Positions 6,285 through 39,289 of a DNA stretch of 39,289 nt are shown here, piece by piece; positions within the stretch are counted from its first letter, which is position 1; the number at the start of each line of letters is the position of its first letter. The notes below the pieces were generated by a model. It made no database searches and was not told the DNA's origin. It saw only the letters and a list, made by a program, of their open reading frames with translations. The position numbers were made by a program, and so were the translations under genes. The stretch is from Candidatus Nomurabacteria bacterium (lineage in GTDB: Bacteria > Patescibacteriota > Minisyncoccia > Phycocordibacterales > UBA9973), in the NCBI GenBank assembly GCA_023267315.1, contig JAHFNN010000007.1:1-39289 (forward strand). The letters run 5' to 3'.

Positions 6285-6372
6285 CCACATATCAATTGTG
6301 CTGTATCACCTTGATAGTTCTATACTGTAGATACCTTTATATTAATAATTATCCTTAGTGCATTATTTAAAA

Positions 6373-9300
6373 ATGAAAAAAACAAAGATATTTCTTGCGG
6401 TAGGAGTTTTTATCGCCGTAATCCTCGTCGTAGTTTTAGGGCGCATAATGCTCAATCAAAAGTTCAATGGTAATCAACAGGCTGCTGCTAATTCTGCCAT
6501 TGTGACATCATCCGATGGGCGTATCTTGTCAAAAGAAATGCAGGTTGGTTTGCTTGGTGTAGACGCAGAATACGGAGTTAACTCTGGCGTCTCGCTTATT
6601 CCAGGGAAAGGATATATTGAAGAGCCCGAACTTTCTTCTGAATCTCTTGGTGTGATGGTCGTCCTCAAAGATGATCCTCTTGGTAAAAATTATGAACAGT
6701 TGCATAAGAATGGACTCTCGAAGGCAGATATTAAATCAAAAATTGCACTAAAGGCACAGGATATTAGATCAAAACACGAAGCACTGAAGTCTTTTATTAA
6801 ACAAAAAACAAAAAAGAACCTCATTGGTCCTGGTCAAAAACAAAATGGTGCGCTTCGCATTCAAGAATACAAAAATGCATTGAATGCTATTTCTTTCCGA
6901 GATATTTCGTATGAAGAAGCCAAAACACTTTTTGCTGGAAGGACAGATATTGCAAGTATTTCTCGAAATAAATTAGTGAGTATTGATTTAAACGATTCAG
7001 TACCGCAGATGGATGTCCCTGATGTTTGGAAATTGTATGGCCCTGTAGGTGTTCCACTTGATGGTACCGGGACGACAATAGGGATTATTGATTCGGGTGT
7101 GCAGTATACTCATCCAGATTTAGGTGGATGTTATGGGAACAATAATCCGTTATCTACCTGCAAGGTTGTTGGGGGATATGATTTTGTAAACCATGACAAT
7201 GACCCGACAGACGACAATGGGCACGGTACACACGTTGCTGCTACTGCTGCAGGGAATGGAACTCTTATAACTGACACTGGAACGATTCCTCTTCCTGGTG
7301 TTGCTCCTGGTGCAAAAATATATGCCTATAAAGTAATGAATAATCGAGGGAGTGGTGGATCGGATGACATTATCGCTGGTATTGAACGCTGTACTGATCC
7401 AAACCAAGATGGAGATTTATCCGATCATTTGGATGTTTGTAGTATGAGTCTTGGTAGCTCTTCAGGTGATCCTGATGATGACATGTCTATTGCTGTTGAT
7501 AATGCAAGTGCTGTTGGAACTGTCTTCACAATTGCAGCAGGTAATAGTGGACCTGGTGCTCAAACGATAGGTTCTCCTGGTACTTCTCGTAGTGCAATTA
7601 CCGTAGCGGCAAGTTGTAAAACAGCACAAATTGGAAAAGATGGACAATGCACAACACCAATCGCAAATTTCTCATCCCGTGGCCCTGTTAAATGGACAGA
7701 CGCAGGAGGTATAGATCAGACACTTATGAAGCCAGATATTGCAGCTGTTGGCCATATGATTTGTGCAGCAAAAGCTTCATTTGTTGTTGGAGGCTCTCCA
7801 TGTGGTCCAGACCATTTTGCAATTTCAGGTACATCTATGGCTACCCCTCATGTTGCTGGAGCGGCAGCTATTGTTCGTGAAGCTCATCCTGAATTTTCAG
7901 CAGCAGAAATTAAAAAGGCACTTATGGATCACGCACGAGATCTAGGATTGCCGGGAACTGTTCAAGGAGCGGGGGAAGTTGATCTTGCAGGAACAATTAA
8001 TGCAATCAGTATTTCAACAAATGAAGTAGATATCCAAGGTTCCCCAGTTACTTTTGCAGATCCTACTACTTCTTTAACCCAAACCTTTACAAAAAATGTT
8101 AGTTTGAAAAATAAAACCAACGCGCCTGTCACTGCAACTTTTAGTCTTGTAAATAATCAGGCAGGGTACGATATGGTTCTTAATGATACAAACGGTAAGG
8201 CTATTTCATCAGCTGTTTTGCCTGCTAATGCTACAGTTTCATTTACTGTCTCTGTTACTGTTCATCATGATGTTGCACGTACTGCGAATATATTTAGTGG
8301 TCTTGTTAAAATTTCAACAGGACCTGCTACAAATCAGAAATTACAATTTTCTGTTGTTGTGACCTCGGATCATCGAATTTCTTCAACTATTACTTCATTC
8401 AATTATGATCTAGTTGCACCTTCTGGTGATACAAAGAATGAATCATTTACGATCACAAACAAACTCATAGATGCTCCAGTAACACTCACTGCGAAGGTTC
8501 GTTGTTGTACATCGGGCTCAGGGGTGATGACTGATCTTGGAGGGACAATCAATAGTCAGGCATCGTATAGTTTTACCTTAGCGAAAGGAGAACAAAAAAC
8601 ACTTGCCATGAAATTAGCAATTCCAAGTAGTCTGATGAATACAAATTATACTGGATATATTGATATCACCTCTTCGTTGGAAAACTTCTCAATACCCATT
8701 ACTTTCTTCAAGGGATATAAAATTTCCATTGATTTTGATGCGGTGCGTCCAACAGTCATAAATATGAAGAATGAATTGACTGGGGGGTCAATGGCGATAT
8801 GGTTGCCTGGTAACAGTCAAACTAATTTATACTTCGGTACGAATGGCCCGTATGATGTCATGGCGTTATGGAATGACACCACTCTTAATAAATGGGATAC
8901 AATCGTTGTTCGTGATTCAATTGATCCTGCCGTTACACCACGAATTTCTCTCAAAAAATCTGACGCTGTTTATGAACAGAAATTCGACTTTAGAGATAGG
9001 TATAATAATGCTGTGGTTGGGAATTATATGGGGTCAGTTTTGACTGCCTCAAAAGGTACAAAAGGATTCTCGTTTTGGGCATCGACTTCTCTTTCATCTT
9101 TATGGACGAATGCGATGCCAGACACATATACTATCGAATATGCTGCATTCAAAAATAACCCCGCAACTGTTTTTGGGGCTGCAATAAAAGGGGTGACTGC
9201 TAGTAAAACATTTACAAATAGTCCGAATGATTTAAAAAAGTTCATAGCCAAATCATTTGATCCAAACATTCCGAATTTCTCTTTCGAGGTTGGCGCGCAG

Positions 9301-12300
9301 ATGGTCGGGCCAGTTTCACCTGCTTCTACTCGATATAATATTTGGGCTGATTCATTACTTGGATCATTCACTACGTCAGATCGTTATTTTGGGATAAATG
9401 GAATGGGTCAATTTGATGTGTATATGGCGCAACAATCTGATCCAGAAATTACAGGGACACTTGAGTATCCAATCTTTGATATCCTAGGACAGAATAAAGA
9501 TGGTGTTATTGTTTATAAGACACCAGCATATACACTTGCGCCTAGTGGTGTTTTGCGAGGTCTTTCCACTGGACACACATTCAGATCTTCTCTGTATAAT
9601 GGTTTGTATCAAAATATAAAGACTCCTTCTACTTCATACTTTATACCAATTGCACAAGGTCCAATGATTGATACGTCTGTTTGGGGTGTAAACGCAAACA
9701 ATTCTGGAGGTATGATTTCTGCGCTGCCAGAGACGAACTCATTATATGTAAACCAAGGAAGAGGGAACGATTTCTGGGGGTACTATAATTCTCCTAGTTT
9801 CCATGATTATTCGATTCCATATACTATTAGTATTGATGGAAAGCTAACGAAAACTGGAAATATTCCATACAACACTTCGACTGGATATTATCCTTCTCTC
9901 ACCCTTGATCAAAGCACTGATCCAATCCCAAAAACACAGTCAGGTTTATATTCTGTTACTACTACTCACAACTATCAAACTCAAGGAATTCCTCTTACCG
10001 CCAAAACAACTGTTACATTTACTGTAAGTGCAACTCCACATGACGCAAATCCTCCACGATTAATCGATTTACAGATACGAGGTGGTGGATATACACAAGA
10101 GGTGATTGATAGTAATCTTGCAAATACATTAGCATTTAGTCTAGATCATGTTGCTGGTGTAACGGGATGGCCGGAAGAGACGGTTCTTACAGGAGGTTCA
10201 CTTGCCTCTGTTTCCGCTTCATACAAATCTCATACGGATTCAAATTGGACAAATCTTTCTATTGCACAAACCTCTGGTGAATATACCGCTCCAATTTCAG
10301 TAATTTCTGGTGCTGCATTGTATGATTTCAAGATTTTTGCAAAGGATCAGGATGGTAATACTTATACGTATGAGTTCAGTGTTCCGTCAGGGTCAGGTGT
10401 TTCATTACCAAGTGCCACTGATGACACCACTCCACCCTCAGCGCCAGCAAATGTTTTGGTTACCACAACAGGCACTACTGCCACTATTACTTGGGATCCA
10501 TCTACTGATACAGGTGGCTCGGGTCTTGCGGGCTATAATGTTTTCAAAAAAAATCCTGATACTTCAAGAACAAATCTAAATACTACACCGGTTACTGGAA
10601 CTTCGTATACTGTCACGGGGCTTACTCCTTCGAAGGCGTATGTTATGGGGGTAGAATCTATAGATAAAGCAGGCAATGTATCTCAGGAAGTTGTATTTTT
10701 CGCAATAACAACATCGGATACTACAGCTCCATCGGTTCCTACTAATCTTGTTTCTTCAAGTAAAACGACCTCAAGTGTCTCTCTTTCATGGTCAGCGTCG
10801 ACAGATGATGTTGGTGTAACTGGTTATGAAGTATTTAAAAATGGTCAATCGGTCGGCACAACAACTACTACCTCATTCACTGCATCAAATCTCCTTGCTG
10901 GTACTCAATATTCATTTACAGTTCGAGCACGTGATGCTGTTGGTAATTATTCTGCTCAGTCTAGTGCCTTACTTGTAACAACAAATAATGCAGCTGACAC
11001 AACCCCACCAGTAATTTCTGCCATAAGCGCCTCATCAATTACTTCAAGTGGTGCTGTAGTTAAATTTACTACAGATGAAAGTGCTAATACGGAAATATAT
11101 TATGGTACTGTGTCATCGACATATCCATTTTCACTTGTCGATAATTCAATGGCCATTTCCCACAACATTACTCTTTCGGGTCTTTCTGCAAATACAAAAT
11201 ATTATTACATTGTTAAATCAAAAGATGGAGTGGGAAATCCAAGTACTTCGTCAGAAAACTCATTCACTACACTTACTGCATCTGACACAACACTTCCTAT
11301 TGTTACCGCATTCACTATTCCTGCTACTAATGGATCATTAGTAGTTCCAATAACCACATTTACTGCAAGTGATAATATTGGTGTCACTGGATATTTGGTG
11401 AATGAATCATCAACTAAACCAACAATCGGCGCTTCTGGCTGGAGCACAACAAAACAAACAAGTTATACTTTTGTATCAGCTGGTACAAAAACAATCTATG
11501 CTTGGGTGAAAGATGCTGCAGGAAATATTTCAGCAAGTAGAAGTGCTTCTGTTACCATATCTATTACTACAAACATTCCTCCGTCAATTACTCCACTTTC
11601 TTCAGTAACCCTCTCTCTCCCAACGCACACTCTCGCACTCTCTCCAGTTGTGAGTGATGACAACTATAATGGTTCAAAAGTTACGGCAACGTGGAGTGGT
11701 ACGAACGTTGTTTTTACTCCAATAACAACAACTGGGACTGCGCCAATCACTGCTGCAACCACTGCAACTTTCCCAAGTACCGCTGGGTCGTACCCAATTA
11801 CTCTTACCGCAACAGATGGTACCTTAGTTACTACTGTAACTATGATGGTTACTATAGCCACAGCGGGTACGTGTGCATCTCCATTTTCAGATAATTTCAA
11901 TACCACAACACTCAATTCTTGTTGGAGTAAGGTTTCTGGTGGCTGGAGTATCCTAAACAATCAACTTACCAATGGGGCGACCGCGACTACTCAACTTATT
12001 ACTATCCCAACAATTGTAGGTTCAACTCAATCAGTAACTGTTACGATTACTCCAACAAATACCCAAGCTACAAAGATGGGTGTTGTTCTTCGACAGCAGG
12101 CAGGGAACTACTATATCTGTGATAAGGAATATGGTGGTTCTGCGATCTACCGTATATCTAAAGTTACAAATAATACTGCCCCTGTCTCACTTGCAACGAT
12201 TGCCTCAAATAATACTCTTGGTTCCTACACTTTCACCTGTTCAATTTCAGGGTCAACAATCACTATAACGACCCCTGTGGGCACTAAAACAATTACAGAT

Positions 12301-12390
12301 ACTTCATTCACTACTGGTGCCACTGGTCTTTATTATGCTGGTCCAGCAGTCGCGCAGAAGTATGATGATGTCAGTGTAAGTGTTCAATAA
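6373..12390 (+). CDS. Giant membrane-anchored subtilisin-like serine protease (peptidase S8) with Fn3, Ig-like, PKD-like and C-terminal lectin/LamG-like domains
   Basis: Catalytic triad motifs: GIIDSGV (Asp codon 7090..7092), HGTHVAATAAG (His 7222..7224) and GTSMATPHVAG (Ser 7834..7836). N-terminal anchor FLAVGVFIAVILVVVL. Fn3 repeats begin with DTTPPSAP / DTTAPSVP. ATG 6373 is preferred over the GTG at 6358 used by the ORF track. Confidence 0.9.
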   Translation: MKKTKIFLAVGVFIAVILVVVLGRIMLNQKFNGNQQAAANSAIVTSSDGRILSKEMQVGLLGVDAEYGVNSGVSLIPGKGYIEEPELSSESLGVMVVLKDDPLGKNYEQLHKNGLSKADIKSKIALKAQDIRSKHEALKSFIKQKTKKNLIGPGQKQNGALRIQEYKNALNAISFRDISYEEAKTLFAGRTDIASISRNKLVSIDLNDSVPQMDVPDVWKLYGPVGVPLDGTGTTIGIIDSGVQYTHPDLGGCYGNNNPLSTCKVVGGYDFVNHDNDPTDDNGHGTHVAATAAGNGTLITDTGTIPLPGVAPGAKIYAYKVMNNRGSGGSDDIIAGIERCTDPNQDGDLSDHLDVCSMSLGSSSGDPDDDMSIAVDNASAVGTVFTIAAGNSGPGAQTIGSPGTSRSAITVAASCKTAQIGKDGQCTTPIANFSSRGPVKWTDAGGIDQTLMKPDIAAVGHMICAAKASFVVGGSPCGPDHFAISGTSMATPHVAGAAAIVREAHPEFSAAEIKKALMDHARDLGLPGTVQGAGEVDLAGTINAISISTNEVDIQGSPVTFADPTTSLTQTFTKNVSLKNKTNAPVTATFSLVNNQAGYDMVLNDTNGKAISSAVLPANATVSFTVSVTVHHDVARTANIFSGLVKISTGPATNQKLQFSVVVTSDHRISSTITSFNYDLVAPSGDTKNESFTITNKLIDAPVTLTAKVRCCTSGSGVMTDLGGTINSQASYSFTLAKGEQKTLAMKLAIPSSLMNTNYTGYIDITSSLENFSIPITFFKGYKISIDFDAVRPTVINMKNELTGGSMAIWLPGNSQTNLYFGTNGPYDVMALWNDTTLNKWDTIVVRDSIDPAVTPRISLKKSDAVYEQKFDFRDRYNNAVVGNYMGSVLTASKGTKGFSFWASTSLSSLWTNAMPDTYTIEYAAFKNNPATVFGAAIKGVTASKTFTNSPNDLKKFIAKSFDPNIPNFSFEVGAQMVGPVSPASTRYNIWADSLLGSFTTSDRYFGINGMGQFDVYMAQQSDPEITGTLEYPIFDILGQNKDGVIVYKTPAYTLAPSGVLRGLSTGHTFRSSLYNGLYQNIKTPSTSYFIPIAQGPMIDTSVWGVNANNSGGMISALPETNSLYVNQGRGNDFWGYYNSPSFHDYSIPYTISIDGKLTKTGNIPYNTSTGYYPSLTLDQSTDPIPKTQSGLYSVTTTHNYQTQGIPLTAKTTVTFTVSATPHDANPPRLIDLQIRGGGYTQEVIDSNLANTLAFSLDHVAGVTGWPEETVLTGGSLASVSASYKSHTDSNWTNLSIAQTSGEYTAPISVISGAALYDFKIFAKDQDGNTYTYEFSVPSGSGVSLPSATDDTTPPSAPANVLVTTTGTTATITWDPSTDTGGSGLAGYNVFKKNPDTSRTNLNTTPVTGTSYTVTGLTPSKAYVMGVESIDKAGNVSQEVVFFAITTSDTTAPSVPTNLVSSSKTTSSVSLSWSASTDDVGVTGYEVFKNGQSVGTTTTTSFTASNLLAGTQYSFTVRARDAVGNYSAQSSALLVTTNNAADTTPPVISAISASSITSSGAVVKFTTDESANTEIYYGTVSSTYPFSLVDNSMAISHNITLSGLSANTKYYYIVKSKDGVGNPSTSSENSFTTLTASDTTLPIVTAFTIPATNGSLVVPITTFTASDNIGVTGYLVNESSTKPTIGASGWSTTKQTSYTFVSAGTKTIYAWVKDAAGNISASRSASVTISITTNIPPSITPLSSVTLSLPTHTLALSPVVSDDNYNGSKVTATWSGTNVVFTPITTTGTAPITAATTATFPSTAGSYPITLTATDGTLVTTVTMMVTIATAGTCASPFSDNFNTTTLNSCWSKVSGGWSILNNQLTNGATATTQLITIPTIVGSTQSVTVTITPTNTQATKMGVVLRQQAGNYYICDKEYGGSAIYRISKVTNNTAPVSLATIASNNTLGSYTFTCSISGSTITITTPVGTKTITDTSFTTGATGLYYAGPAVAQKYDDVSVSVQ

Positions 12391-14931: not shown

Positions 14932-15744
14932 ATGAACAAATCAAAAAGCAATTCAATTATTATCGCGCTTCTTTGCATTATTATCATTTTTCTAGTGATT
15001 TTGGTATTTGGTGGAACCAAAAACGGTATGAATGTCGCAGTTAATGCAGATGATCAGTCCGCAGCAGCAGGAGGAAAAACTCCACCACCACCAATTATAA
15101 CCAATACTTTCCCAGTTACGGTTGGTAATCCAGGTGTCGGAAGAGACATTCCGGATCAAGGGTCAATCAGTAATTATCCTAATCGAAATGGGAATAACTT
15201 ACTAGAATTCCAGTATCCTTTAGGAACACCACTGAGTAAAATAGATCTATACGTAGATTCTGCACTTTATCAATCAAGAACTTTTGGTCCTACAGATGCA
15301 GCCACTAATACGATAATGTTTCTTATTAACCATGATACGGCTGCGATAGGAAAAGGTATGCACTCAGTATATGCATTGGCGTATGCGACCGATGGAAATA
15401 TTTCACAGTCGAACACTATACACATCTATGTGAATAACACGACTCATTTCAATGGATGGAATATCTTTAATCCAAAAAATGGCGCAACAATTTCCGGTAC
15501 CTATACCCTCCGAAGCGGTGCATTCTTAGCTCAAAATTCTGGTACAGTAACGAAAGTTGAATTCTATGCTGATGGAAAATTGCTCGGTAATGGAACCGCG
15601 TATACTCTTGTGGCAGGGATATATGAATATGTTTTGGACACAACCAAACTTTCAAATGGTACGCATCAACTTATGGTAAAAGCATACGGATCAGGTGGTG
15701 ATGTTGTTACATCGCTTCCGGATACGGTTACTGTTGCAAACTAA
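14932..15744 (+). CDS. Membrane-anchored exoprotein with Ig-like domains (paralogous to 5425..6228)
   Basis: 270 aa with anchor IIIALLCIIIIFLVILVF and the juxtamembrane motif DDQSAAAGG. The C-terminal domain VEFYADGKLLG...LDTTKLSNGTHQLMVKAYGSGGD parallels 5425..6228 and the Ig-like domains of 23826..27581. Confidence 0.7.
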   Translation: MNKSKSNSIIIALLCIIIIFLVILVFGGTKNGMNVAVNADDQSAAAGGKTPPPPIITNTFPVTVGNPGVGRDIPDQGSISNYPNRNGNNLLEFQYPLGTPLSKIDLYVDSALYQSRTFGPTDAATNTIMFLINHDTAAIGKGMHSVYALAYATDGNISQSNTIHIYVNNTTHFNGWNIFNPKNGATISGTYTLRSGAFLAQNSGTVTKVEFYADGKLLGNGTAYTLVAGIYEYVLDTTKLSNGTHQLMVKAYGSGGDVVTSLPDTVTVAN

Positions 15745-20653: not shown

Positions 20654-20686
20654 GGTCTTCGGGTGTATAACCCACAATTAGTTCAT

Positions 20687-21094
20687 ATGGCAACTTTAAA
20701 ACCAAAAACAACAAAAGAAAGTGGAGCTGCAAAAACTGTTAAGCCGAAAGCAAAAGCAGTCAAAGTATCTGTAGGCAAAGAAGATGGAAAGGTATTACTC
20801 CGAATCCGTGTTCGAGCATACGAGAACAAGATACTTGATGCATCAGTCAAGCAGATTATGGATACCGCACTTCGATATGATGCCAATGTATTGGGACCAG
20901 TTCCAATACCAACAGAAATCAAGAAGTACACCGTCAATCGTTCTCCATTCATCTACAAGAATACCCGCGAACAGTTTGAAATCCGCACACACAAGAGATT
21001 AATCGATATTGTGAATCCGTCTCCAAAGACGATTGAAGCACTCACAAACCTCTCATTGCCTTCAGGTGTTGAGATTGATGTGAAGATGTTGTAG
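20687..21094 (+). CDS. rpsJ: 30S ribosomal protein S10 with a Lys-rich N-terminal extension
   Basis: The core [14 protein letters not shown]...GPVPIPT...[12 protein letters not shown] matches S10. ATG 20687 is preferred to the GTG at 20663. About 35 extra N-terminal residues ([26 protein letters not shown]...). Confidence 0.9.
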
Positions 21095-22828: not shown

Positions 22829-23680
22829 ATGAAATCCTATAAACCTACAAGTCCATCACGCAGACAAATGACCACGGTAACCTACCGAGGTGTTTTGACT
22901 GAATCTAAGCCACACAAGGCACTCACTAAGGGTCGCAAGCGTGCAATGGGCCGCAACAGCATGGGTCGCATTACTACCAACCACAAAGGTGGAGGTAACA
23001 AGCGTGCGTACCGTGATGTTGATTTTATGTACAACAAGATCGATATCCCAGCAACAATCAAGTCTGTTGAATACGATCCAAACCGTTCAGGATTTATCGG
23101 ACTTGCGTTTTATCGAGATGGAGAAAAGCGCTATGTGCTTCTTCCAAAGTCAGTTGGTGTTGGTAGTACCTTCCTCGTATCTGAAAAGGCCCCAGTCACC
23201 CCAGGAAATCGTCTTCCACTCAAAGGTATTCCTGTTGGAACATTTGTATACAATATCGAATTGAAGCCAAAAGGTGGTGCAAAAATTGCCCGCTCAGCAG
23301 GAATATTCGCACAAGTTGTTGCGAACAGTGATGGTCAGACACATTTAAAGATGCCATCAACTGAAGTTCGAAAAGTTTCTGAAAATGCATGGGCATCAGT
23401 TGGAGAAGTTTCAAACGAAGAACATCATTTGGTAAATTACGGAAAGGCAGGACGATCACGATGGCGTGGTATCCGCCCAACAGTGCGCGGAACAGCTATG
23501 AACCCAGTAGACCATCCATACGGTGGAGGTGAAGGACGCCAAGGACGTGGTACACGTCGACCAAAGACCCGTCACGGAAAGATTACTGGTGGACGAAAGT
23601 CACGAACTCCAAAGAAATACTCGAATCCATTTATCGTTTCTCGCCGAAAGACAGGCAAAAATCGAAAACAACAAGGATAA
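22829..23680 (+). CDS. rplB: 50S ribosomal protein L2
   Basis: 283 aa. Contains GRNSMGRITTNHKGGGNKR and RGTAMNPVDHPYGGGEG, which are L2 signatures. Confidence 0.97.
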   Translation: MKSYKPTSPSRRQMTTVTYRGVLTESKPHKALTKGRKRAMGRNSMGRITTNHKGGGNKRAYRDVDFMYNKIDIPATIKSVEYDPNRSGFIGLAFYRDGEKRYVLLPKSVGVGSTFLVSEKAPVTPGNRLPLKGIPVGTFVYNIELKPKGGAKIARSAGIFAQVVANSDGQTHLKMPSTEVRKVSENAWASVGEVSNEEHHLVNYGKAGRSRWRGIRPTVRGTAMNPVDHPYGGGEGRQGRGTRRPKTRHGKITGGRKSRTPKKYSNPFIVSRRKTGKNRKQQG

Positions 23681-23683
23681 AAT

Positions 23684-23716
23684 AAAAAGACCCCGCCAAA
23701 GCGGGGTCTTTTTATT
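23684..23716 (+). terminator. Intrinsic terminator immediately after rplB
   Basis: aaaaagaccccgc-caaa-gcggggtcttttt followed by attt. Confidence 0.85.
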
Positions 23717-23825
23717 TCCCCAAAAATGCTTCAGATATATTCTAAACTCAGGTACAATGAGTACTAGTACTAAGGGGAGTGCTTACTCATCTTAATTATC
23801 TATTATCATTTTATTATAATTTTCT

Positions 23826-26800
23826 ATGCGAAATAAAAATTCAGTAGTTGTTGTAGTTATTTTAGTACTTGTACTTGGTGTTGTTTTTTATTTGCTAAAC
23901 AAAAAAACAGTTCAACCAGAAGATACCACGCCTAAGACGAACGTTGCCGAAAAAACTGGCGGACGTGTATCTGAGCAAGTTCGTGTATTGAAAGATCAGG
24001 GTATTGTTTTTAAACCAGTCGACCTACTTACCCCGAGTACGAAAGTCTTTAAAAAAATGGACTCGATCTCTTATAACGCGTTCACTCCTAAAGAGGCTAT
24101 CGTAAAGGACTTACTAAAAAACAAAGATCAATACATTGCTATCCAAATTCCACTTATGCATTCGACAAATACTGCGAGTGCTGCAAGTGCGGATGATATC
24201 GCGACACTGAACCTCTATCGTGTAGATAGTGACCCTACTAATATTATGACTAGTAGTGGTAAAAAAATTGTTGATGAGACGCTTTCGTACCGCGGGGATG
24301 TAGATGGATCTACTACTGACTCACTTGCGAGTGTAACTGTTACACCATCGGGTGAAATGTATGGATTAATTTCTGATGGTACCAACACTTATAATATTCA
24401 ACCAATAGATAGGCATGATCTTAGTACAGGGGAGACTGTGACTACACCAACAATAGTTGTTTTTAATGTATTAGATGCTGGACCAAACCCTTTGCAACGT
24501 AACGACAAGCATCTTGATGTTCCAGGCGTTGAAACACAAGAACATCCAAGTTTTGATTATTTTAATCTTCCTGTTGCTCATGCTGCTGTCACAAGTACAA
24601 GTAGGGTTGTGCAATGGTACTGGGAAACTGACTACGATCTTTTTGTAGATAAAGGTAGTGCTGCAAATGTTAATACGTATATCCAGGGTGTTTTCAATCA
24701 AGTAAAGACGTTGTATGCAAATGATGGTATCCCAATCAACCTTAAGACTTTGTATATATGGACAACTCAAGATCCGTATACTGGAACAACAACGGATGCT
24801 TATTTAAATCAATTTGGCTCATATCGTACGTCGTTTGATGGTAATCTTGCGACTCTTATCGGGTATCATGGAAGCGGTGGTATTGCGTATCTTGGTACAC
24901 TTGGTTTTTCAACTACTCAATATCGAATGTCGTATTGTGGAATTAGTTCTAGTTATAGTGGTGTTCCTTCGTATTCATGGACGGTTGAGTGTATCGCACA
25001 CGAAGAAGGGCATTTACTTGGTCCAAATCACACACATGATTGTGTGTGGAATGGAAATGCAACAAAGATAGATGAATGTGGAGATGTCGCAGGATATAAG
25101 TCAGGCACTTGCCTTCCGGATCCAGTACCACAGTTGCCTGTAGGGGGAGGAACTATTATGAGTTATTGTGATCTTACAAGTGCAGGTATCAATTTCACAA
25201 AAGGATTTGGACCACAGCCTGCGCAGCTTATGGTAAATGTGATTGAAAATTGTCATAGTGCCGATCCTAATCTTTGTCCTACGGTGACAAGTACTGATAC
25301 CACTCCACCAGTTGTTTCCAACGTAACTGTTTCAAATATTACTTCAGCGACAGCAACTATTCATTGGACGACCGATGACGCATCTGATAGTTGGGTGATG
25401 TACTACAGTGATCCGAATGTCATTACAGGTATTCCTGGAAATACTAATACTACTGATCATATTGCTAACATTTCATCACTTCTACCATCTACAACTTATT
25501 ATTATTCTGTTAAATCTACAAATAGCGCTAACCTCACCAGTACCCCAACGCCCTTTGTGATGTTTAAAACAACAACTCCTGATTCAACCCCTCCCTCAGC
25601 TCCAAAAAATCTTTCTGCTACTAATACGACCGCTTCAACCACTACGCTGTCTTGGGGTGCTTCCAGTGATGGTACGGGCTCAGGGGTTGCAGGATATTTT
25701 ATCTATGAAAATGGATCAACAAATCCTATCAACTCTACCGCAATCACGGCGACAAGCTATGTAGTTTCAGGTTTAAGCTACTCCACTACATATACATTTC
25801 AGGTGTTAGCAAAAGACTTATCTGGTAACCCTTCAGCTTTGAGTAACCAGATATCTGTGACAACACTACCACCAGCAGTCCCATTCATTGTCTCTGGTCC
25901 AACGGTTTCATCCATAACAGCAACAGCAGCAACGATTACCTGGGATACAGATGTTGTTGCTGATACGCAAGTATTTTTCAGTACAACTGCTGGAGGTCCA
26001 TATACAACAAAAACTGATCCAGCTCTTGTTACACATCATTCAGTTTCGATTAGTGGACTTTCATCGAACACCAAATATTACTTCTTGGCAAAATCAGTGA
26101 ATGTATCAGGTACTGCAACGTCTGCTGAATTGAACTTCACTACGTTGGATACTCCTGATACCACTGCTCCAACTGTATCGATTACTGCTCCAACAGGAAG
26201 TTCATATCAAAAAGGAGCAGTTGTTGTAACTGCAACCTCGGCGGATAATGTTGGAGGGAAGGGGGTGCGAGATGTACAGTTCTTTGTTGACTCAACCACG
26301 AGTACAGCTATCGGTGTTGATGCAACTCTCCCATATTCTGTAACCATCGATACTACAAAATACACCAATGCTTCTCATAAACTCTATGCAATTGCCTGCG
26401 ACAACAATTTACCAACACCAAACTGTCGAACATCTGCTGCTGTTTCGTTCTATGTAGATAATCTAGTCCCTGTAACGGCAGTGACTGCTCCGACTTCAAA
26501 TCAGACAATCACCGGTACAACCTTCACACTTAAAGCTTCTGCGACTGATACTGGATCCGCTGTTTCTAAAGTTGATTTCTATGCTGATGGAAATCTTTTG
26601 GGTACTGATACAACCAGTGCGTATACATTCGCGTGGAATATTACCACTGTTACTGGAACCCACCGTATTACCTCGGTCGCAACTGACAAGGCTGGTAACA
26701 CTACAACATCATCTCCGGTTAGCGTAATCGTTAATCCTGCGGCAACAAACCAGCCACCACAAGTGAATGCTGGATCTGATCAAACTATCTATCTACCAAC

Positions 26801-27581
26801 ATTGAGTACCACACTTAATGGATTTGCGACGGATGATAATTTTGGAGGATCAACACTTACGACGAGTTGGACAAAAGTATCTGGACCTGGAACCGTGGCG
26901 TTTGGTACGCCAAATGTAGTTACTACGACCGCCATGTTCTCTACTTCGGGGAGTTACACACTTCAGCTTTATGCAACGGATGGGACATTGGCTGCGAGTG
27001 ATACTATTGTTATTAATATTACACCTAAACCAGCAGGATTCTTTGATGATTTTAATCGATCAGACAGTTCTGTGGTTGGAAATGGGTGGCAGACCATAGC
27101 CGGTTCTTTTGGAATAAAAAATAATAAGCTGACTTCTACATCTGGGGTGCAATCTAGAATTATTCAGCCAGCATCCTTTGTTGATCAAACAGTCTCAGCG
27201 ACATTCCAAAGATATAATTCTACTGGAGCAAGTAAGTTTTGCTTACTTCTTAGATACAAGGATGCGAATAATTATATGGATGCCTGTCAGACGTTTGGTG
27301 GATCTCAACAAATATATATGGCAAAAGTTGCCAATGGTTCAACCACCTTCAATTACGTAAAAGCAACGAATGGCTCCAATCTAAATACGGGAAACTACTA
27401 TACTCCGTTTACCATAAAGGCAAGCGCTATTGGTTCGACTTATTCAATGACTCTTACAAATCAGGACGGTACATATAACCTAGTACCATTTACCGACACC
27501 ACCTTAACTCAAGGAATGTCGGGAATCATGATCGGAGCATCTGCTGGTCTTGATACGATTGACGAATTCAATATTCAATAA
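23826..27581 (+). CDS. Giant membrane-anchored metzincin-type zinc metalloprotease (reprolysin-like) with Fn3, Ig-like, PKD-like and C-terminal lectin/LamG-like domains
   Basis: HEEGHLLGPNH (an HExxHxxGxxH motif) at 24999..25031, with a Met-turn GTIMSYC (Met codon 25158..25160). N-terminal anchor VVVVVILVLVLGVVFYLL. Fn3 repeats carry DSTPPSAPKNL...GSGVAGY. The C-terminal ~270 aa are collinear with the C-terminus of 6373..12390. Confidence 0.85.
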   Translation: MRNKNSVVVVVILVLVLGVVFYLLNKKTVQPEDTTPKTNVAEKTGGRVSEQVRVLKDQGIVFKPVDLLTPSTKVFKKMDSISYNAFTPKEAIVKDLLKNKDQYIAIQIPLMHSTNTASAASADDIATLNLYRVDSDPTNIMTSSGKKIVDETLSYRGDVDGSTTDSLASVTVTPSGEMYGLISDGTNTYNIQPIDRHDLSTGETVTTPTIVVFNVLDAGPNPLQRNDKHLDVPGVETQEHPSFDYFNLPVAHAAVTSTSRVVQWYWETDYDLFVDKGSAANVNTYIQGVFNQVKTLYANDGIPINLKTLYIWTTQDPYTGTTTDAYLNQFGSYRTSFDGNLATLIGYHGSGGIAYLGTLGFSTTQYRMSYCGISSSYSGVPSYSWTVECIAHEEGHLLGPNHTHDCVWNGNATKIDECGDVAGYKSGTCLPDPVPQLPVGGGTIMSYCDLTSAGINFTKGFGPQPAQLMVNVIENCHSADPNLCPTVTSTDTTPPVVSNVTVSNITSATATIHWTTDDASDSWVMYYSDPNVITGIPGNTNTTDHIANISSLLPSTTYYYSVKSTNSANLTSTPTPFVMFKTTTPDSTPPSAPKNLSATNTTASTTTLSWGASSDGTGSGVAGYFIYENGSTNPINSTAITATSYVVSGLSYSTTYTFQVLAKDLSGNPSALSNQISVTTLPPAVPFIVSGPTVSSITATAATITWDTDVVADTQVFFSTTAGGPYTTKTDPALVTHHSVSISGLSSNTKYYFLAKSVNVSGTATSAELNFTTLDTPDTTAPTVSITAPTGSSYQKGAVVVTATSADNVGGKGVRDVQFFVDSTTSTAIGVDATLPYSVTIDTTKYTNASHKLYAIACDNNLPTPNCRTSAAVSFYVDNLVPVTAVTAPTSNQTITGTTFTLKASATDTGSAVSKVDFYADGNLLGTDTTSAYTFAWNITTVTGTHRITSVATDKAGNTTTSSPVSVIVNPAATNQPPQVNAGSDQTIYLPTLSTTLNGFATDDNFGGSTLTTSWTKVSGPGTVAFGTPNVVTTTAMFSTSGSYTLQLYATDGTLAASDTIVINITPKPAGFFDDFNRSDSSVVGNGWQTIAGSFGIKNNKLTSTSGVQSRIIQPASFVDQTVSATFQRYNSTGASKFCLLLRYKDANNYMDACQTFGGSQQIYMAKVANGSTTFNYVKATNGSNLNTGNYYTPFTIKASAIGSTYSMTLTNQDGTYNLVPFTDTTLTQGMSGIMIGASAGLDTIDEFNIQ

Positions 27582-27597
27582 AAATAATGATGTAACA

Positions 27598-27625
27598 TAA
27601 AGACCCGCCTAGTGGCGGGTTTTTA
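27598..27625 (+). terminator. Intrinsic terminator
   Basis: aaagacccgcc-tagt-ggcgggttttt. Confidence 0.85.
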
Positions 27626-27640
27626 TGTTATAATTTTCGT

Positions 27641-28039: not shown

Positions 28040-28049
28040 AAGTAATCTT

Positions 28050-28079
28050 AAAAAAGCCCTGCAATCGCAGGGTTTTTTA
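28050..28079 (+). terminator. Intrinsic terminator
   Basis: aaaaaagccctgc-aat-cgcagggtttttt. Confidence 0.85.
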
Positions 28080-28081
28080 GT

Positions 28082-28110
28082 TTGACTTCAATCTCTTTGA
28101 ATGGTATTCT
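28082..28110 (+). promoter_or_regulatory. Candidate promoter for pyrF
   Basis: TTGACT (28082..28087), a 17-nt spacer ending in TGg, then TATTCT (28105..28110). Confidence 0.4.
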
Positions 28111-28158
28111 GACCCCGAATTAGAAATCTATTGTTAAACAAGTTAAAAACTAAAAATT

Positions 28159-32168: not shown

Positions 32169-32196
32169 TTGACATTATTATAGGATTTGCTAGTAT
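32169..32196 (+). promoter_or_regulatory. Strong sigma70-type promoter for the rpsS...rplE block
   Basis: TTGACA (32169..32174), a 16-nt spacer, then TGc-TAGTAT (32191..32196). The architecture and flanks match the tuf promoter (gcgagc..atttgaca.tta.t.ta...tttgctagtatg). Confidence 0.7.
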
Positions 32197-34620: not shown

Positions 34621-34992
34621 ATGATTCAAGACGGAACAGTAGTAAAAATTACAGATAACGCCGGCGGTAAGATCGGCAAGGTATTCAAAGTGCTCGGTGG
34701 TTCACGCCGACGCTATGCTTCTATTGGCGACCGCGTCATCATTTCTATCAAGATCGCAGAACCTCGTAAGGCAGTAAAGAAAAAGGATGTACATCAAGCT
34801 GTGGTTGTTCGCGTACGAAATGCGTTCCGCCGAAAAGATGGATCATATATTCGTTTTGATGATAACGCTGTCGTGATTTTAGAAAAAGATAAACAAGAAC
34901 CAAAGGCAGGACGCGTCTTCGGTCCAATTCCTCGTGAATTGGGTGAGAAGGGCTATCAGAAGATTATTTCTTTGGCACCTGAGGTTATTTAA
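34621..34992 (+). CDS. rplN: 50S ribosomal protein L14
   Basis: MIQDGTVVKITDNAGGK...V.V.....R.DGS.IRFD.NA.V....GPI.REL is the L14 signature. Confidence 0.96.
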   Translation: MIQDGTVVKITDNAGGKIGKVFKVLGGSRRRYASIGDRVIISIKIAEPRKAVKKKDVHQAVVVRVRNAFRRKDGSYIRFDDNAVVILEKDKQEPKAGRVFGPIPRELGEKGYQKIISLAPEVI

Positions 34993-34996
34993 TACT

Positions 34997-35302
34997 ATGA
35001 ATATCAAGAAAGGAGACAACGTAATAGTTATCGCTGGTAAAGACAAAGGCAAGAAGGCTAAGGTATTGGGAGTATTCGCAAGTCAGAACCGCGTATTGGT
35101 TGAAGGCATCAACATGAAGAAGAAACACCAAAAGCCTCGCCGCACCAATGAGAAAGGTCAAACAATCGAAGTCGCAACACCACTCCACATTTCAAACGTT
35201 ATGCTTATTGATTCAAAATCAGGAAAGCAGACACGTGTTGGTTCAAAGATGGCAGGTGGTAAGAAGATTCGAGTTAGTAAGAAGTCAGGAAATGAAATTT
35301 AA
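34997..35302 (+). CDS. rplX: 50S ribosomal protein L24
   Basis: MNIKKGDNVIVIAGKDKGKKAKV (KOW motif). The start at ATG 34997 is internal to the ORF-track start at 34934, which would overlap rplN. Confidence 0.93.
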   Translation: MNIKKGDNVIVIAGKDKGKKAKVLGVFASQNRVLVEGINMKKKHQKPRRTNEKGQTIEVATPLHISNVMLIDSKSGKQTRVGSKMAGGKKIRVSKKSGNEI

Positions 35303-35988: not shown

Positions 35989-38900
35989 ATGAAAAAACAC
36001 ATAGTCTCTACTTCAATATTATTTGTGGTGCTTGTTATTCTTATTGTGTTTTTTCATGGTTCGTTCGGGTCATTATGGAAAAATTTGATGGGGGCTGCTC
36101 GTAATGCTTTTTTGAACTCGACAACACCTTCTACTGGGGTAGTTGCGACCTCTCCAAATCAATTTAAAGGTGTATCTGTCTACAGTAATGAATTTTTTAT
36201 AAAATTGAAAAAAAATACAAGTCCAACGTCGACTGATTTTAAAAATATAAATAAAAAATATGGGGTTACGTCATTCACGCAAGCTGTTAAACCACTCGCT
36301 ACTTCTAATTCATCTGCCGATGTATTTTTATGGTATAAGGTGACACTACCATACACAAAAGAAGCACTCACGCTTGATGGATCCAGGAACGATACAAATA
36401 TGACCACACAGGATAAGTTGGGAAAACTGTTCCGTGCCATTGAAGATTATAAAAAATTGAGTGGATTATCAAAGATAGAACCATCTCTGGTGTACTATCA
36501 ATTTAATAGTCCGAATGATTCATACTTTACTTCTTCTGGTAGTTGGGGACAACCGACTGATGATTTATGGAATCTTAAAAAGATAAATATGCCACTTGCG
36601 TGGGATCAAAGTACTGGAGGCAATGTGTTAGTTGCTGATATTGATACTGGACTTGATGGTGCCAATCCTGATATTTCGGGCAATGTGGTTCCTGGATTTG
36701 ATTTTTGTACGAACCTTGCAACGGGAGTGACTACTGATAACGATAAAGTTGGTCATGGTACACACACCGCAGGTATTATTGGTGCAACTGGAAATAATAC
36801 GTTGGGTATTGTTGGGATCAACTGGAAAGTTAAAATTATGCCCCTTGCTATCTTTGATAGCAATAATCACTACTGTTCTGGGGCAGGACCTACGGCTGTG
36901 ATATATGCAGCTGATAATGGCGCAAGGGTTACTAATAATAGTTGGGGAGCAATAAGTTATGATCCGCTTCTTGATGATGCATTTAGGTATGCCTATGATA
37001 AAGGTGTCATTTCTGTTGCTGCTGCGGGAAACAATAATATAGATGCACTTGCGGTATCGCCCGCTTCATTCCCATGGGTTATAACAGTTTCAGCAACTGA
37101 TTATCAGGATCAAAGAGCTTCTTTCTCTAACTGGGGAGCAAAAATTGATGTGGCGGCACCAGGAGTGGACATACTTTCACTACGTGCTTCTATGACTGAT
37201 TTTTATAATGATGGTGGGTCGCACTTTGTGCCACCATACGATTTTTCTACAAATTATATGCGCATGAGTGGTACTTCTATGGCGGCACCTCATGTTACTG
37301 GCCTCGCAGCATTACTCCTTGCAAAGTACCCAACTCTTTCAGTCGAAGGAGTTCGTCAAATAATTCGTACGAACACTCTTGATCTACTTCCGGCTGGCAA
37401 AGATGATTCTTTTGGATATGGACGAATAGATGCTGGAAGTACAATGGTGAATGCCATTACGTTACCACTTGAACCTGTTATTACGAGTCCTAAAAATGAT
37501 AGTGCGGTTGTTTCCGGGAGTGTCCCTATCTTAGGAGGTGTTGTTGGTCCTAATTTTAAATCGTACTCATTAGATTATGGAATAGGGCACTCGCCATCAT
37601 CTTGGAATAATATAGTTACCAGTACAAATCAGATCACGAGTGGTACATTGGGAACTTTTTCTGCAAATACGGTTCCTGATGGTTCGTATACGATACGTCT
37701 CACGGCAACCAACACTTCAGGTAAGACATTTGAATTTGCTGTCTATAATGTCATCGTTAATAATTTTACGATTTCGATCGTTAATCCGGTAGATTATGTT
37801 TCAAAAACTACCGCAATGCCTATTTCAGGAACGGTTAATGCAATCGCTGGTGTCACGCTTCAGTCTTACATCGTTGAATACGCTCCGGGGATCAACCCGA
37901 ATTCTGGGTGGATAACAATCGGTACAAATACAAATACCGTTGTTGATAGAACGCTTGCTTCATGGAATACCTCAGCACTTGCGTTAGGTGCGTATACTAT
38001 TCGGGTTACCGCCACGACTTCAACTGGTGCGGGAGCTACTCAACAATTTCATGTGAATGTTGACCCCGAAATGGTTCCTGGTTGGCCAAAACTTCTTTCA
38101 TATTCATGTAACGTCTGGTATCAGTGTTCTATGATGCCTGCATTTGGTGATCTCTTGGGGAATAAACAGAGAGAATTGGTGACTGCAAGTAAAAATATTC
38201 TTCATGCATATAAAAAAGATGGTAGTGAATTACCTGGCTTTCCCGTTACCCTTTCTTCAGGAGAATATTTCAACCGTGCGATAACATTAGATGATCTTGA
38301 TGGTGATGGTAAAAAAGAAATTATTGTTCCTGTTTGTCCACCAGCATATCCTGACGGTACTGCCGGAGATTGTCATATCAATATTTTCACTTCTTCTGGA
38401 GCAAGTTATCCTGGATGGACTAAACCAAAAGTTCAATTTACGTACTATATTTATCAAGGAGAAGCACTTGGTCCTGCAATCTATGATCTTGATGGTGACG
38501 GCAATAAAGAGATAGTTTTTTATGATCATTATGGTTCTTTGCATGCATATAAACTCAATGGCACAGAAATTTCTGGTTTCCCTGTGGCAACCGCGGCTCT
38601 GTTTGCATTGAAGACATCGCCAGGGGAGACTCCGTATGTATCAATTGCTGATATGGATCAAGATGGTAAACCAGAAATTGCAATGACGGTTTTAAATGGT
38701 GTTGGTGGACAGCTTAGAGTTGCTCTTTTAGATAATAAAGGAGCGGTTGTTCCTGGGTGGCCTGTCTCTATCCCAATAAGCCCAAATGCAAATCCTCCGG
38801 TTCCTTCTTCGGCTCCTACCTTCGCGGATCTTTTGGGTGATAAAAATCTTGAGATAGTTGTACCTATTGGTACGTATAATATGAAAGCAGGTGGTGATTA

Positions 38901-39289
38901 TCCTATCCACGCGTGGGCAAAAGATGGAAGCGAGGTTTCTGGATGGCCGAAGTCGTATCACAGTGATTATTTTGCCGGTGGAATTGCAGGAGGTGTTATC
39001 GCTCCCGTCGCGGCTGATTTAGATTATGATTTTAGAGACAATATTATCTATAACTTGAATGATCACTTCTTTATGTATTCACAATTAGGATCAGTGACGG
39101 ATTTTGCTGATCCATGGATACAAGGAAATCTGACGTCTCGACCGGTTGGTAATGTGAACGGTGATAACCATCTTGATTTTATTGATGCTGCATTGAGTCC
39201 TTGGTTTGGAGGCAAAGGAACAACTGGATTGGGGATTGTTGATGACACTGGAAAGGTTACGTGGCAACGAAGTTTTGATTGCGGAGATC
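35989..39289 (+). CDS. Third giant membrane-anchored subtilisin-like protease (S8) with tandem Ig-like domains and FG-GAP/VCBS-like repeats. It is 3-prime partial (no stop codon in the window) and absent from the ORF track.
   Basis: My own translation from ATG 35989 stays open for 1100 codons to the window end. N-terminal anchor ILFVVLVILIVFF. Triad motifs: VADIDTGLD (Asp 36643..36645), HGTHTAGIIGA (His 36754..36756) and SGTSMAAPHVTG (Ser 37276..37278). Repeats: LDDLDGDGKKEI, YDLDGDGNKEIV, ADMDQDGKPEIA. Confidence 0.85.
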   Translation, partial: MKKHIVSTSILFVVLVILIVFFHGSFGSLWKNLMGAARNAFLNSTTPSTGVVATSPNQFKGVSVYSNEFFIKLKKNTSPTSTDFKNINKKYGVTSFTQAVKPLATSNSSADVFLWYKVTLPYTKEALTLDGSRNDTNMTTQDKLGKLFRAIEDYKKLSGLSKIEPSLVYYQFNSPNDSYFTSSGSWGQPTDDLWNLKKINMPLAWDQSTGGNVLVADIDTGLDGANPDISGNVVPGFDFCTNLATGVTTDNDKVGHGTHTAGIIGATGNNTLGIVGINWKVKIMPLAIFDSNNHYCSGAGPTAVIYAADNGARVTNNSWGAISYDPLLDDAFRYAYDKGVISVAAAGNNNIDALAVSPASFPWVITVSATDYQDQRASFSNWGAKIDVAAPGVDILSLRASMTDFYNDGGSHFVPPYDFSTNYMRMSGTSMAAPHVTGLAALLLAKYPTLSVEGVRQIIRTNTLDLLPAGKDDSFGYGRIDAGSTMVNAITLPLEPVITSPKNDSAVVSGSVPILGGVVGPNFKSYSLDYGIGHSPSSWNNIVTSTNQITSGTLGTFSANTVPDGSYTIRLTATNTSGKTFEFAVYNVIVNNFTISIVNPVDYVSKTTAMPISGTVNAIAGVTLQSYIVEYAPGINPNSGWITIGTNTNTVVDRTLASWNTSALALGAYTIRVTATTSTGAGATQQFHVNVDPEMVPGWPKLLSYSCNVWYQCSMMPAFGDLLGNKQRELVTASKNILHAYKKDGSELPGFPVTLSSGEYFNRAITLDDLDGDGKKEIIVPVCPPAYPDGTAGDCHINIFTSSGASYPGWTKPKVQFTYYIYQGEALGPAIYDLDGDGNKEIVFYDHYGSLHAYKLNGTEISGFPVATAALFALKTSPGETPYVSIADMDQDGKPEIAMTVLNGVGGQLRVALLDNKGAVVPGWPVSIPISPNANPPVPSSAPTFADLLGDKNLEIVVPIGTYNMKAGGDYPIHAWAKDGSEVSGWPKSYHSDYFAGGIAGGVIAPVAADLDYDFRDNIIYNLNDHFFMYSQLGSVTDFADPWIQGNLTSRPVGNVNGDNHLDFIDAALSPWFGGKGTTGLGIVDDTGKVTWQRSFDCGD

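Follow-up and report, generated by a model that had tools for sequence, protein, structure and literature searches.

A reprolysin-like metzincin gene in the variable rplB–rpsS gap of a Candidatus Nomurabacteria bacterium

Why should the gene for a large protease lie between rplB and rpsS, two ribosomal protein genes that are normally contiguous in the S10 operon? The question is raised by a 39,289-nt stretch of DNA (the window) from a Candidatus Nomurabacteria bacterium (assembly GCA_023267315.1, contig JAHFNN010000007.1, forward strand), in which positions 23826..27581 encode a 1251-residue protein with the hallmarks of a zinc protease, hereafter the metzincin. Bacteria of the Candidate Phyla Radiation (CPR, or Patescibacteria) have a minimal metabolism and are thought to depend on other cells, and how they acquire amino acids and engage their hosts is little understood. 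We read the metzincin, with a probability of roughly 70%, as a Sec-exported multidomain zinc metalloendopeptidase zymogen with a Bacteroidota-derived head, a CPR module set and a lectin-like tail for targeting, encoded by an insulated cassette in a hypervariable gap of the S10 cluster. Its predicted anatomy comprises an uncleaved-looking signal anchor, an ADAM-like prodomain, a catalytic domain of adamalysin fold, six beta-sandwich modules and a concanavalin A-like (ConA-like) domain. The protein adds a new architecture to an already known peptidase family, and both its host and the site of its gene in the genome are unusual; it is a case of modular evolution that leaves current understanding standing.

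By the sequence of its rplB product, the owner of the gene is a Candidatus Nomurabacteria/Paceibacteria-type CPR bacterium of groundwater: the best match, at 81% identity, is in a metagenome-assembled genome (MAG) of Candidatus Nomurabacteria, and the remaining 79 matches, down to 64%, fall in MAGs of Nomurabacteria, Paceibacterota and other Patescibacteria. Proteins recovered by our searches are given P-numbers and their loci L-numbers, L001-L080 being the rplB neighbourhoods of related Patescibacteria.

The head is a reprolysin-like metzincin

The N-terminal part of the gene encodes the following features.

23826..27581, + strand: metzincin gene, 1251 amino acids plus stop codon (open reading frame and Pfam)
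23826..23903, + strand: N-terminal signal anchor, residues 1-26, MRNKNS-VVVVVILVLVLGVVFYLL-NK (sequence; helix at residues 4-24 in the AlphaFold2 model; no clear small-x-small cleavage motif after it)
23958..24599, + strand: prodomain (about residues 45-225) and low-confidence linker (228-253), ADAM-prodomain-like fold
24600..25259, + strand: catalytic domain, residues 259-478, Pfam Reprolysin_5
24999..25031, + strand: zinc-binding motif HEEGHLLGPNH, residues 392-402 (H392, E393, H396, H402), followed by T403-H404-D405
25149..25169, + strand: Met-turn segment GTIMSYC, residues 442-448 (M445)

The metzincin-clan hallmarks that we tested for are all present, namely a HExxHxxGxxH motif with its catalytic Glu, a conserved Met downstream and the metzincin fold. 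In an alignment of 41 heads (the metzincin and 40 homologues), H392, E393, H396, H402 and M445 are invariant, as is the core of the Met-turn (G442, T443, M445, S446 and Y447), in which M445 lies 43 residues past H402, presumably below the zinc site. Pfam places residues 259-448 in Reprolysin_5 (PF13688) with a score of 60.1 bits (cut-off 27; E 4.4e-16). The first 490 residues retrieved 1081 homologues at E<=1e-3 (best E 1e-109), the best of them 41-46% identical over 87-97% of the query, and residues 258-408 gave weak sequence matches to adamalysin II and VAP1.

An AlphaFold2 (AF2) model of the head, built on the 41 sequences, has a predicted local distance difference test score (pLDDT) of 80.3 and a predicted template modelling score (pTM) of 0.83. 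Confidence is low only for the linker behind the anchor, for residues 228-253 and for the C-terminal end. Its top Foldseek match in the PDB is zymogen ADAM17, aligned through prodomain and catalytic domain over 411-483 columns (E 2e-13), and further matches include VAP1, ADAM8, acutolysins, BaP1, adamalysin II, ADAM33, ADAMTS-5 and snake-venom metalloproteinases, together with the zymogens of Bacteroides fragilis profragilysin and metalloproteinase II. More than 100 PDB entries, mostly adamalysin-type metzincins, matched at E<1e-3, with template modelling (TM) scores of up to 0.75 on target length. Sequence and model thus both support a reprolysin-like metzincin, as had been proposed in a preliminary description of this DNA that picked out the same reading frame, zinc motif and GTIMSYC segment.

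The likeness to adamalysins or reprolysins (M12B: ADAMs, ADAMTS and snake-venom metalloproteinases), which supply the best fold matches, includes the prodomain, and HExxHxxGxxH and a Met-turn are common to both. In adamalysins the third His is typically followed directly by Asp (HExxHxxGxxHD), and the Met-turn reads C-I/V-M, the S-x-M-x-Y form with Tyr being that of astacins and serralysins. The window protein instead has Thr at this position (T403, invariant in the bacterial family, with an H-D pair at 404-405), and a T-I-M-S-Y turn, and it lacks a cysteine-switch Cys as well as disintegrin and Cys-rich domains. PF01421 (Reprolysin) was not among its matches at E<=0.01; some of its homologues do match this family. 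Judged by these residues and by the missing PF01421 match, the window protein is not a canonical M12B member, and our literature search found no characterised member of Reprolysin_5.

The closer relatives are bacterial proteins named ‘M12 family metallo-peptidase’ (PF13688; e.g. P0001, P0002, P0007 and P0115), which are homologous in prodomain and catalytic domain over 87-97% of the head and share with the window protein an invariant HExxHxxGxxH-T-H, C406, C418, C429 and GT-x-MSY. Many of them carry PKD_6 and a type IX secretion system (T9SS) sorting domain; the window protein lacks both, is hosted by CPR rather than Bacteroidota, and has Fn3, PAPN-like, Big_7, PKD and ConA-like modules instead. 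It also has an N-terminal signal anchor. It also lacks four Cys residues that the family conserves:

Position 226, in the prodomain: N in the window protein, Cys in 40/40 homologues
Position 261: V in the window protein, Cys in 36/40 homologues
Position 360: G in the window protein, Cys in 38/40 homologues
After position 475: gap in the window protein, Cys in 40/40 homologues

The prodomain Cys of the 40 homologues lies about 35 residues before the catalytic domain, a position that suggests a cysteine switch. The metzincin has no Cys at all before residue 371, so that, if the Cys of the homologues is such a switch, latency in the window protein would be achieved by other means or not at all.

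The catalytic head most likely came from Bacteroidota

The catalytic domain (259-475) is 66-71% identical to those of P0001-P0007, and the prodomain only 18-27%. We considered a separate, chimeric origin of the prodomain and rejected it, since the same drop is seen across the family: homologue pairs with 60-70% catalytic identity share 19-53% (mean 29%) in the prodomain, with the window protein at the low end. This indicates that the prodomain evolves fast throughout the family.

Where the head homologues have source names, these are mostly Bacteroidota (Ferruginibacter, Flavobacteriales, Saprospiraceae and Flavobacterium); P0007 is named Ferruginibacter and P0115 Flavobacterium. Most of the best head homologues carry PKD_6 and the T9SS sorting domain PF18962, and the neighbours of P0001, the best match, also carry Por_Secre_tail. 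An unbootstrapped neighbour-joining tree of catalytic domains places the window sequence as sister to P0001, nested within the family. No relative of the head was found in any of the 80 related CPR loci (the rplB neighbourhoods). Given the mostly Bacteroidota labels, the nesting in the tree and the absence from these 80 loci, a transfer from Bacteroidota to CPR is the most economical account, and the catalytic head was most likely acquired across phyla in that direction. The composition of the gene, compared with its contig, shows no sign of recent transfer (G+C content, GC, 0.41, like the contig; GC at third codon positions, GC3, 0.28).

The next-nearest heads in the same tree belong to P0031 (locus L082, 6001..8217) and P0035, which combine M12 with Big_7 and Fn3, have D-T-T-A-P-type linkers and, like the window protein, lack the ‘KCV’ Cys. 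If P0031 and P0035 are CPR proteins, the M12 head may have entered the CPR group earlier than the window lineage.

A modular stalk ends in a ConA-like domain

Stalk and tail make up 61% of the metzincin. We set module boundaries at D-T-T-x-P-type linkers, both here and in an S8 subtilase encoded in the same window (6358..12390, 2010 residues), and then compared all modules with all. Relatives of each module were judged against the proteins recovered in this analysis, a set that was not sampled for Fn3 or PAPN-like modules.

25290..25577, + strand: P1, PAPN-like/Fn3-like, residues 489-584 (Pfam Pur_ac_phosph_N at residues 499-573)
25578..25868, + strand: F, Fn3, residues 585-681 (43-44% identity to both Fn3 modules of the S8 subtilase)
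25869..26159, + strand: P2, PAPN-like, residues 682-778 (36% identity to the PAPN-like module of the S8 subtilase)
26160..26744, + strand: Big_7a (779-873) and Big_7b (874-973), Ig-like (no specific counterpart in the S8 subtilase)
26745..27026, + strand: K, K319L-like PKD, residues 974-1067 (60% identity to P0146, 40% to the PKD of the S8 subtilase)
27027..27578, + strand: C, ConA-like domain (lectin/glucanase fold), residues 1068-1251 (family motif F-D-x-F-N-R-x-D-S...G-x-G-W)

After the head, Pfam recognises in turn a Pur_ac_phosph_N-like unit, fn3, another Fn3-like unit, two Big_7 domains and a K319L-like PKD; the last ~185 residues have no Pfam match. A word-indexed homology search with the C-terminal domain alone returned nothing, and with PKD plus C-terminal domain only PKD matches; an exhaustive profile search with hidden Markov models was needed, and it recovered 783 representatives of the tail family at E<1e-3. 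The AF2 model of the tail is all-beta with 12 strands (pLDDT 65.5, pTM 0.67), and Foldseek matched it to legume lectins, the C-terminal ConA-like domain of GH43 xylosidases, galectins and CBM66 (E 3e-5 to 4e-4, probability ~1.0, TM ~0.5). Sequence identity to solved lectins is 7-15%, so that no binding site can be transferred to the tail. Its relatives give weak Pfam matches to GH43_C2, DUF7257 and 3keto-disac_hyd (3-keto-disaccharide hydrolase). The lectin-like C-terminus named in the preliminary description is therefore supported as a modelled beta-sandwich fold of ConA type, with ligand binding putative.

The tail family extends well beyond the window. Among its 150 best representatives, the domain sits at the very C-terminus in 115 and is immediately preceded by a K319L-type PKD in 19, both window proteins included. 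A Pfam survey of 58 long members found it together with Peptidase_M11 (15), Reprolysin_5 (10), S8 (2) and astacin (2); P0126 joins it to a C1 papain head, and PKD plus the tail domain also occur in P0056, an M12 head homologue. The sharing of one tail by unrelated protease heads holds, on the evidence of these sequences, well outside this genome, and the common targeting logic suggested beforehand for the two window proteases is plausible. An uncharacterised family with hundreds of representatives, placed repeatedly on unrelated peptidase classes, is a good candidate for a general targeting module.

The best match of the Big_7-PKD-ConA-like part of the metzincin is P0146, a 1326-residue protein of a related CPR bacterium (locus L083, 5333..9313, GCA_040384045.1). 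Like the metzincin, P0146 begins with a hydrophobic anchor and a HExxH head and ends in a K319L-PKD and a ConA-like domain, with Big_7 repeats in between; it aligns to metzincin residues 655-1249 (616 amino acids) with 34% identity and 213 bits, compared with 124 bits for the S8 subtilase, and reaches 60% in the PKD. It differs in having another zincin head (HEIGHLLDLEH, with no Reprolysin match), five Big_7 modules and no Fn3 or PAPN-like modules. The SecY from the contig of P0146 shares 85.6% identity with its counterpart at one of the related CPR loci, which places P0146 in the same broad CPR clade. Its gene, too, lies beside translation genes (secY-adk-map, infC-rpmI-rplT and truB), a hint that large protease genes of the clade tend to adjoin ribosomal clusters.

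Proposed function

In the mechanism that we favour, the protein would be exported by the Sec pathway and stay anchored in the membrane through its N-terminal helix, as the features of the sequence suggest. The prodomain would keep the zinc site latent, here without the Cys found in all aligned homologues, and its removal, by analogy, would also cut off the sole membrane anchor. The mature enzyme would then rely on its C-terminal ConA-like domain at the end of the stalk, whose ligand, a glycan or another surface molecule, could belong to the envelope of the cell itself, to a host cell or to the substrate. The S8 subtilase is arranged likewise, its anchor and pro-region being N-terminal and its ConA-like domain C-terminal, and this would explain in functional terms why the two proteins have a PKD and ConA-like tail in common. 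The enzyme would degrade extracellular or host-surface proteins, in nutrient scavenging or in host interaction. In evolutionary terms, the PKD_6 and T9SS tail typical of the nearest homologues is absent, and a module set circulating among related CPR bacteria stands in its place. For one patescibacterial epibiont, large membrane-associated proteins that contain Fn3 and ConA domains have been put forward as candidates for host recognition (PMC13059738), and a role in peptide scavenging or host interaction fits, by analogy, with such proposals for large surface proteins of Patescibacteria (PMC13059738).

Several points weigh against this interpretation. That the prodomain is cleaved off and the anchor lost with it is an assumption taken over from ADAMs and subtilases, and the loss of four family-conserved Cys residues could mean altered or absent latency, or reduced stability of the enzyme. 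The model of the ConA-like domain, computed from an alignment of two sequences, reaches moderate confidence (pLDDT 65.5), and the direction of transfer of the head is drawn from the taxonomic spread of mostly unlabelled matches and from the unbootstrapped tree. No Shine-Dalgarno sequence was found near the start codon of the metzincin, and short cross-hits in tuf were all that metatranscriptomes from the same study yielded, which are uninformative on expression.

The locus presents a testable effector, an apparently active secreted metzincin, to judge by its residues, whose origin and re-tailoring are legible from sequence: a Bacteroidota-like head on a CPR-type stalk and lectin tail, with the T9SS signal and the conserved Cys residues lost. 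A wider generalisation, which we offer tentatively as a possibility, is a lineage-specific display chassis of Paceibacteria-type CPR bacteria, composed of an N-terminal anchor, an Ig/Fn3/PKD rod and a ConA-like tail, onto which heads of whatever mechanism (M12, M11-like, S8 and C1) have been grafted, some from other phyla such as Bacteroidota; terminator-insulated cassettes in hypervariable gaps of the otherwise conserved str-S10-spc clusters would encode such proteins, and the tail would act as a common address label that guides the released proteases to a host or self surface glycan.

It is also conceivable, if rather improbable, that the protein is mainly an adhesin or surface display protein, with a head that is inactive or only processes itself and with a stalk and lectin tail that attach an epibiont to its host. 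The Fn3 and ConA host-recognition candidates mentioned above, the 61% share of stalk and tail and the loss of the four conserved Cys, that of the prodomain included, would all agree with such a role. The head, however, keeps H392, E393, H396, H402, M445 and Y447 and is 66-71% identical in its catalytic domain to presumably active homologues, and with the hallmark residues fully conserved a pseudo-enzyme is not expected. The anchor, moreover, is at the head end and not at the far end as in typical adhesins.

Comparison with the S8 subtilase

The preliminary description had held that the metzincin was built on the same scaffold as the subtilase and that the two had exchanged a cassette. The subtilase is recognised by Pfam through Peptidase_S8 (E 8e-55), two fn3 domains and a Pur_ac_phosph_N-like unit, and its stalk and tail occupy the following stretch.

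10408..12390, + strand: S8 subtilase stalk and tail, residues 1351-2010 (Fn3, Fn3, PAPN-like, DUF7743-like Ig, PKD-like, ConA-like)

Like the metzincin, it carries an anchor at its N-terminus, with the protease head close to that end, and these are followed by Fn3, PAPN-like, Ig-like, PKD-like and ConA-like modules in the same relative order. Unlike the metzincin, it is a serine protease with an 800-residue unannotated middle region after the head, and it has two Fn3 modules, one PAPN-like module and one DUF7743-like Ig instead of two Big_7. The metzincin runs P1-F-P2-Big_7a-Big_7b-K-C (C being residues 1068-1251), and the subtilase Fa (1351-1449)-Fb (1450-1543)-P (1544-1641)-Ig (1642-1738)-K (1739-1835)-C (1836-2010).

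BLASTP between the two proteins gave one colinear alignment, residues 557-1250 of the metzincin with 1337-2007 of the subtilase, at 29% identity (E 3e-32), a resemblance far beyond chance. Within the window, reciprocal best matches pair F with Fa and Fb (43-44%), P2 with P (36%), K with K (40%) and C with C (29-32%). The short strings quoted earlier as evidence of kinship, NTKYYFLAKS and NTKYYYIVKS, GSGVAGY and GSGLAGY, are all present, and two mechanistically unrelated heads (M12 and S8) do bear homologous modules (Fn3, PAPN-like, K319L-PKD and ConA-like) whose relative order is the same. Copy numbers and Ig families differ, however, as does the N-terminal part of the stalk (P-F-P against F-F-P). 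Specifically, the Ig module of the subtilase is matched best not by Big_7 but by the DUF7743 domain of the small protein at 5425..6228 (40% over 98 residues, 67 bits), whereas the best matches of the metzincin Big_7 modules within the window are the Big_7 domains of two small proteins; their nearest relatives overall are P0035, P0146, P0192 and those small Big_7 proteins. The claim of one and the same scaffold is therefore not supported: by sequence, the two are similar without being identical, drawing on an overlapping repertoire in the same relative order.

A direct and recent exchange of the stalk-and-tail cassette within this genome, which would make the two proteins variants of one scaffold, is unlikely. 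The colinearity over ~700 residues at E 3e-32 and the reciprocal best matches of Fn3, PAPN-like, PKD and ConA-like modules would favour it, as would the GC3 of 0.26-0.28 common to the large surface-protein genes. Module identities are just 29-44%, however, and neither blastn nor dc-megablast detected DNA similarity between the two genes. The Ig families differ (two Big_7 against one DUF7743-like), and some modules are closer to proteins of other organisms than to each other: the K module of the metzincin shares 60% identity with P0146, 50% with P0126 and 49% with P0250 compared with 40% with the subtilase, its C module shares 39% with P0126 compared with 29% with the subtilase, and the nearest relatives of the subtilase C module are P0157 and P0143 (34-35%). 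For the Fn3 and PAPN-like modules of the metzincin the S8 protein is the best match, which carries little weight in a set not sampled for Fn3. On these grounds we rejected a recent intragenomic transfer, and the recency claimed for the exchange is largely refuted.

The metzincin gene has one DNA-level similarity to the rest of the window, a 26-nt match (26568..26593 with 15553..15578, 96% identity, blastn E 2e-5) that joins Big_7b to a small Big_7 gene and encodes V(D/E)FYADG(N/K)LLG. Low GC3 (0.26-0.28) is found in all five surface-protein genes of the contig (5425-6228, 6358-12390, 14932-15744, 23826-27581 and 35989-end), and its housekeeping genes mostly have higher values (0.33-0.42) at similar total GC; the Thr/Ser-rich composition of the stalks may account for part of this.

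A putative insulated cassette in a variable gap

In this str-S10-spc cluster, rplB ends at 23680 and rpsS starts at 32236, leaving a gap of 8556 bp with six genes. The gene had been described as an insertion between rplB and rpsS; this is true only loosely, since it is one of those six tenants of a variable gap. Signals suggestive of transcriptional boundaries flank it.

23679..23718, either strand: terminator-like palindromic hairpin, G+C-rich with A-run and T-run flanks, 18-pair stem with 7 GC pairs, AAAAAGACCCCGCcaaaGCGGGGTCTTTTTATTT
23730..23758, + strand: promoter-like site TTCAGA-17-TACAAT, ~68 nt 5′ of the start codon (consensus match 9/12, no functional proof)
27591..27632, + strand: intrinsic-terminator-like hairpin of 19 pairs followed by a T-run, 10 nt past the metzincin stop

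The first hairpin abuts the rplB stop codon (23680) and could serve either strand. With a terminator, a promoter-like site and a second terminator around it, the metzincin gene looks like an insulated monocistronic cassette outside the S10 operon transcript.

Among 61 related loci that have both genes, the distance from rplB to rpsS ranges from 22 bp to 8.1 kb (median 927 bp), with 13 below 200 bp, 19 above 2 kb and 5 above 5 kb. dgkA lies 3′ of rplB in 16 related loci, in 10 of them less than 200 bp away, and a phosphoribosyltransferase and an amidohydrolase recur in the gap. The larger gaps carry a 1439-residue Big_7 and peptidoglycan-binding protein, proteins with PKD and TSP1 domains, glycosyltransferases and a CHASE2 cyclase. 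The variable size and cargo of the gap, together with the absence of head relatives from the 80 loci, point to a site that varies across the clade and to a lineage-specific tenant: by this comparison of sequences, the metzincin is a lineage-specific occupant placed between rplB and the commoner tenant dgkA. In an exact-sequence search the metzincin protein was found on no other contig and its 90% cluster has one member, and a metagenome scan with the full-length protein returned 0 relatives. Our literature search returned nothing on interruptions of ribosomal operons in Patescibacteria. With the ribosomal block of the clade broken by up to 8.6 kb of variable cargo, and with three protease genes on one contig, the hypervariable rplB–rpsS junction calls for caution among phylogenomic users of this syntenic block as a marker set.

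That the position is artefactual, a Bacteroidota protease fragment having been joined to a CPR contig by chimeric assembly, is very improbable and was rejected as effectively refuted: the unusual similarity of the catalytic domain to Bacteroidota proteins (~70%) and the low metagenome coverage (2-5x) might raise the suspicion, but contigs assembled independently from two groundwater metagenome runs span the rplB/metzincin junction (23088-24183) and the metzincin/dgkA/pyrF junction (27514-28739 and 27424-27798) with 0 mismatches, GC and GC3 match the other surface-protein genes of the contig, and the same reading frame runs on into modules whose nearest relative is in a related CPR genome. In runs X1 and X2, some contigs have loose ends at 23494 and 23536, in the 3′ part of rplB (23494..23616), and one X2 contig jumps 67 nt within rplB (23529 to 23597); these probably stem from related strains or species with a conserved rplB in the same samples.

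Other features of the window

The ribosomal cluster is interrupted at several places. In order, the window holds rpsL, rpsG, a 267-residue DUF7743 and Big_7 protein, the S8 giant and fusA; a 270-residue Big_7 protein, purD (- strand), purN, tuf, rpsJ, rplC, rplD, rplW and rplB; the metzincin gene, dgkA, pyrF, the phosphoribosyltransferase (-), the amidohydrolase (-) and a 179-residue reading frame; and rpsS, rplV, rpsC, rplP, rpsQ, rplN, rplX, rplE and a partial second S8 subtilase.

5425..6228, + strand: small secreted-looking protein, 267 residues, DUF7743 and Big_7, adjoining ribosomal genes
14932..15744, + strand: small secreted-looking protein, 270 residues, Big_7, adjoining ribosomal genes
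32169..32196, + strand: promoter-like site TTGACA-16-TAGTAT with TG upstream, ~40 nt before rpsS (good sigma-70-like match)
35989..39289, + strand: partial second S8 subtilase after rplE, at least 1100 residues, running off the contig end (start of the reading frame approximate)

The promoter-like site before rpsS and the hairpin after rplB suggest that the S10 operon is split here into two transcription units. In the partial protein at 35989, an N-terminal anchor is combined with a Peptidase_S8 domain (E 7e-51), which shows the motifs DTG, HGTH and SGTSMAAPH, and with FG-GAP repeats. Scans of the whole window for Rfam families and tRNA genes gave no matches. In the rpsJ reading frame (20663..21094) the S10 domain begins at residue 47 of 143, and the rplX frame (34934..35302) overlaps rplN by 59 nt; the true start codons of both genes probably lie further downstream.

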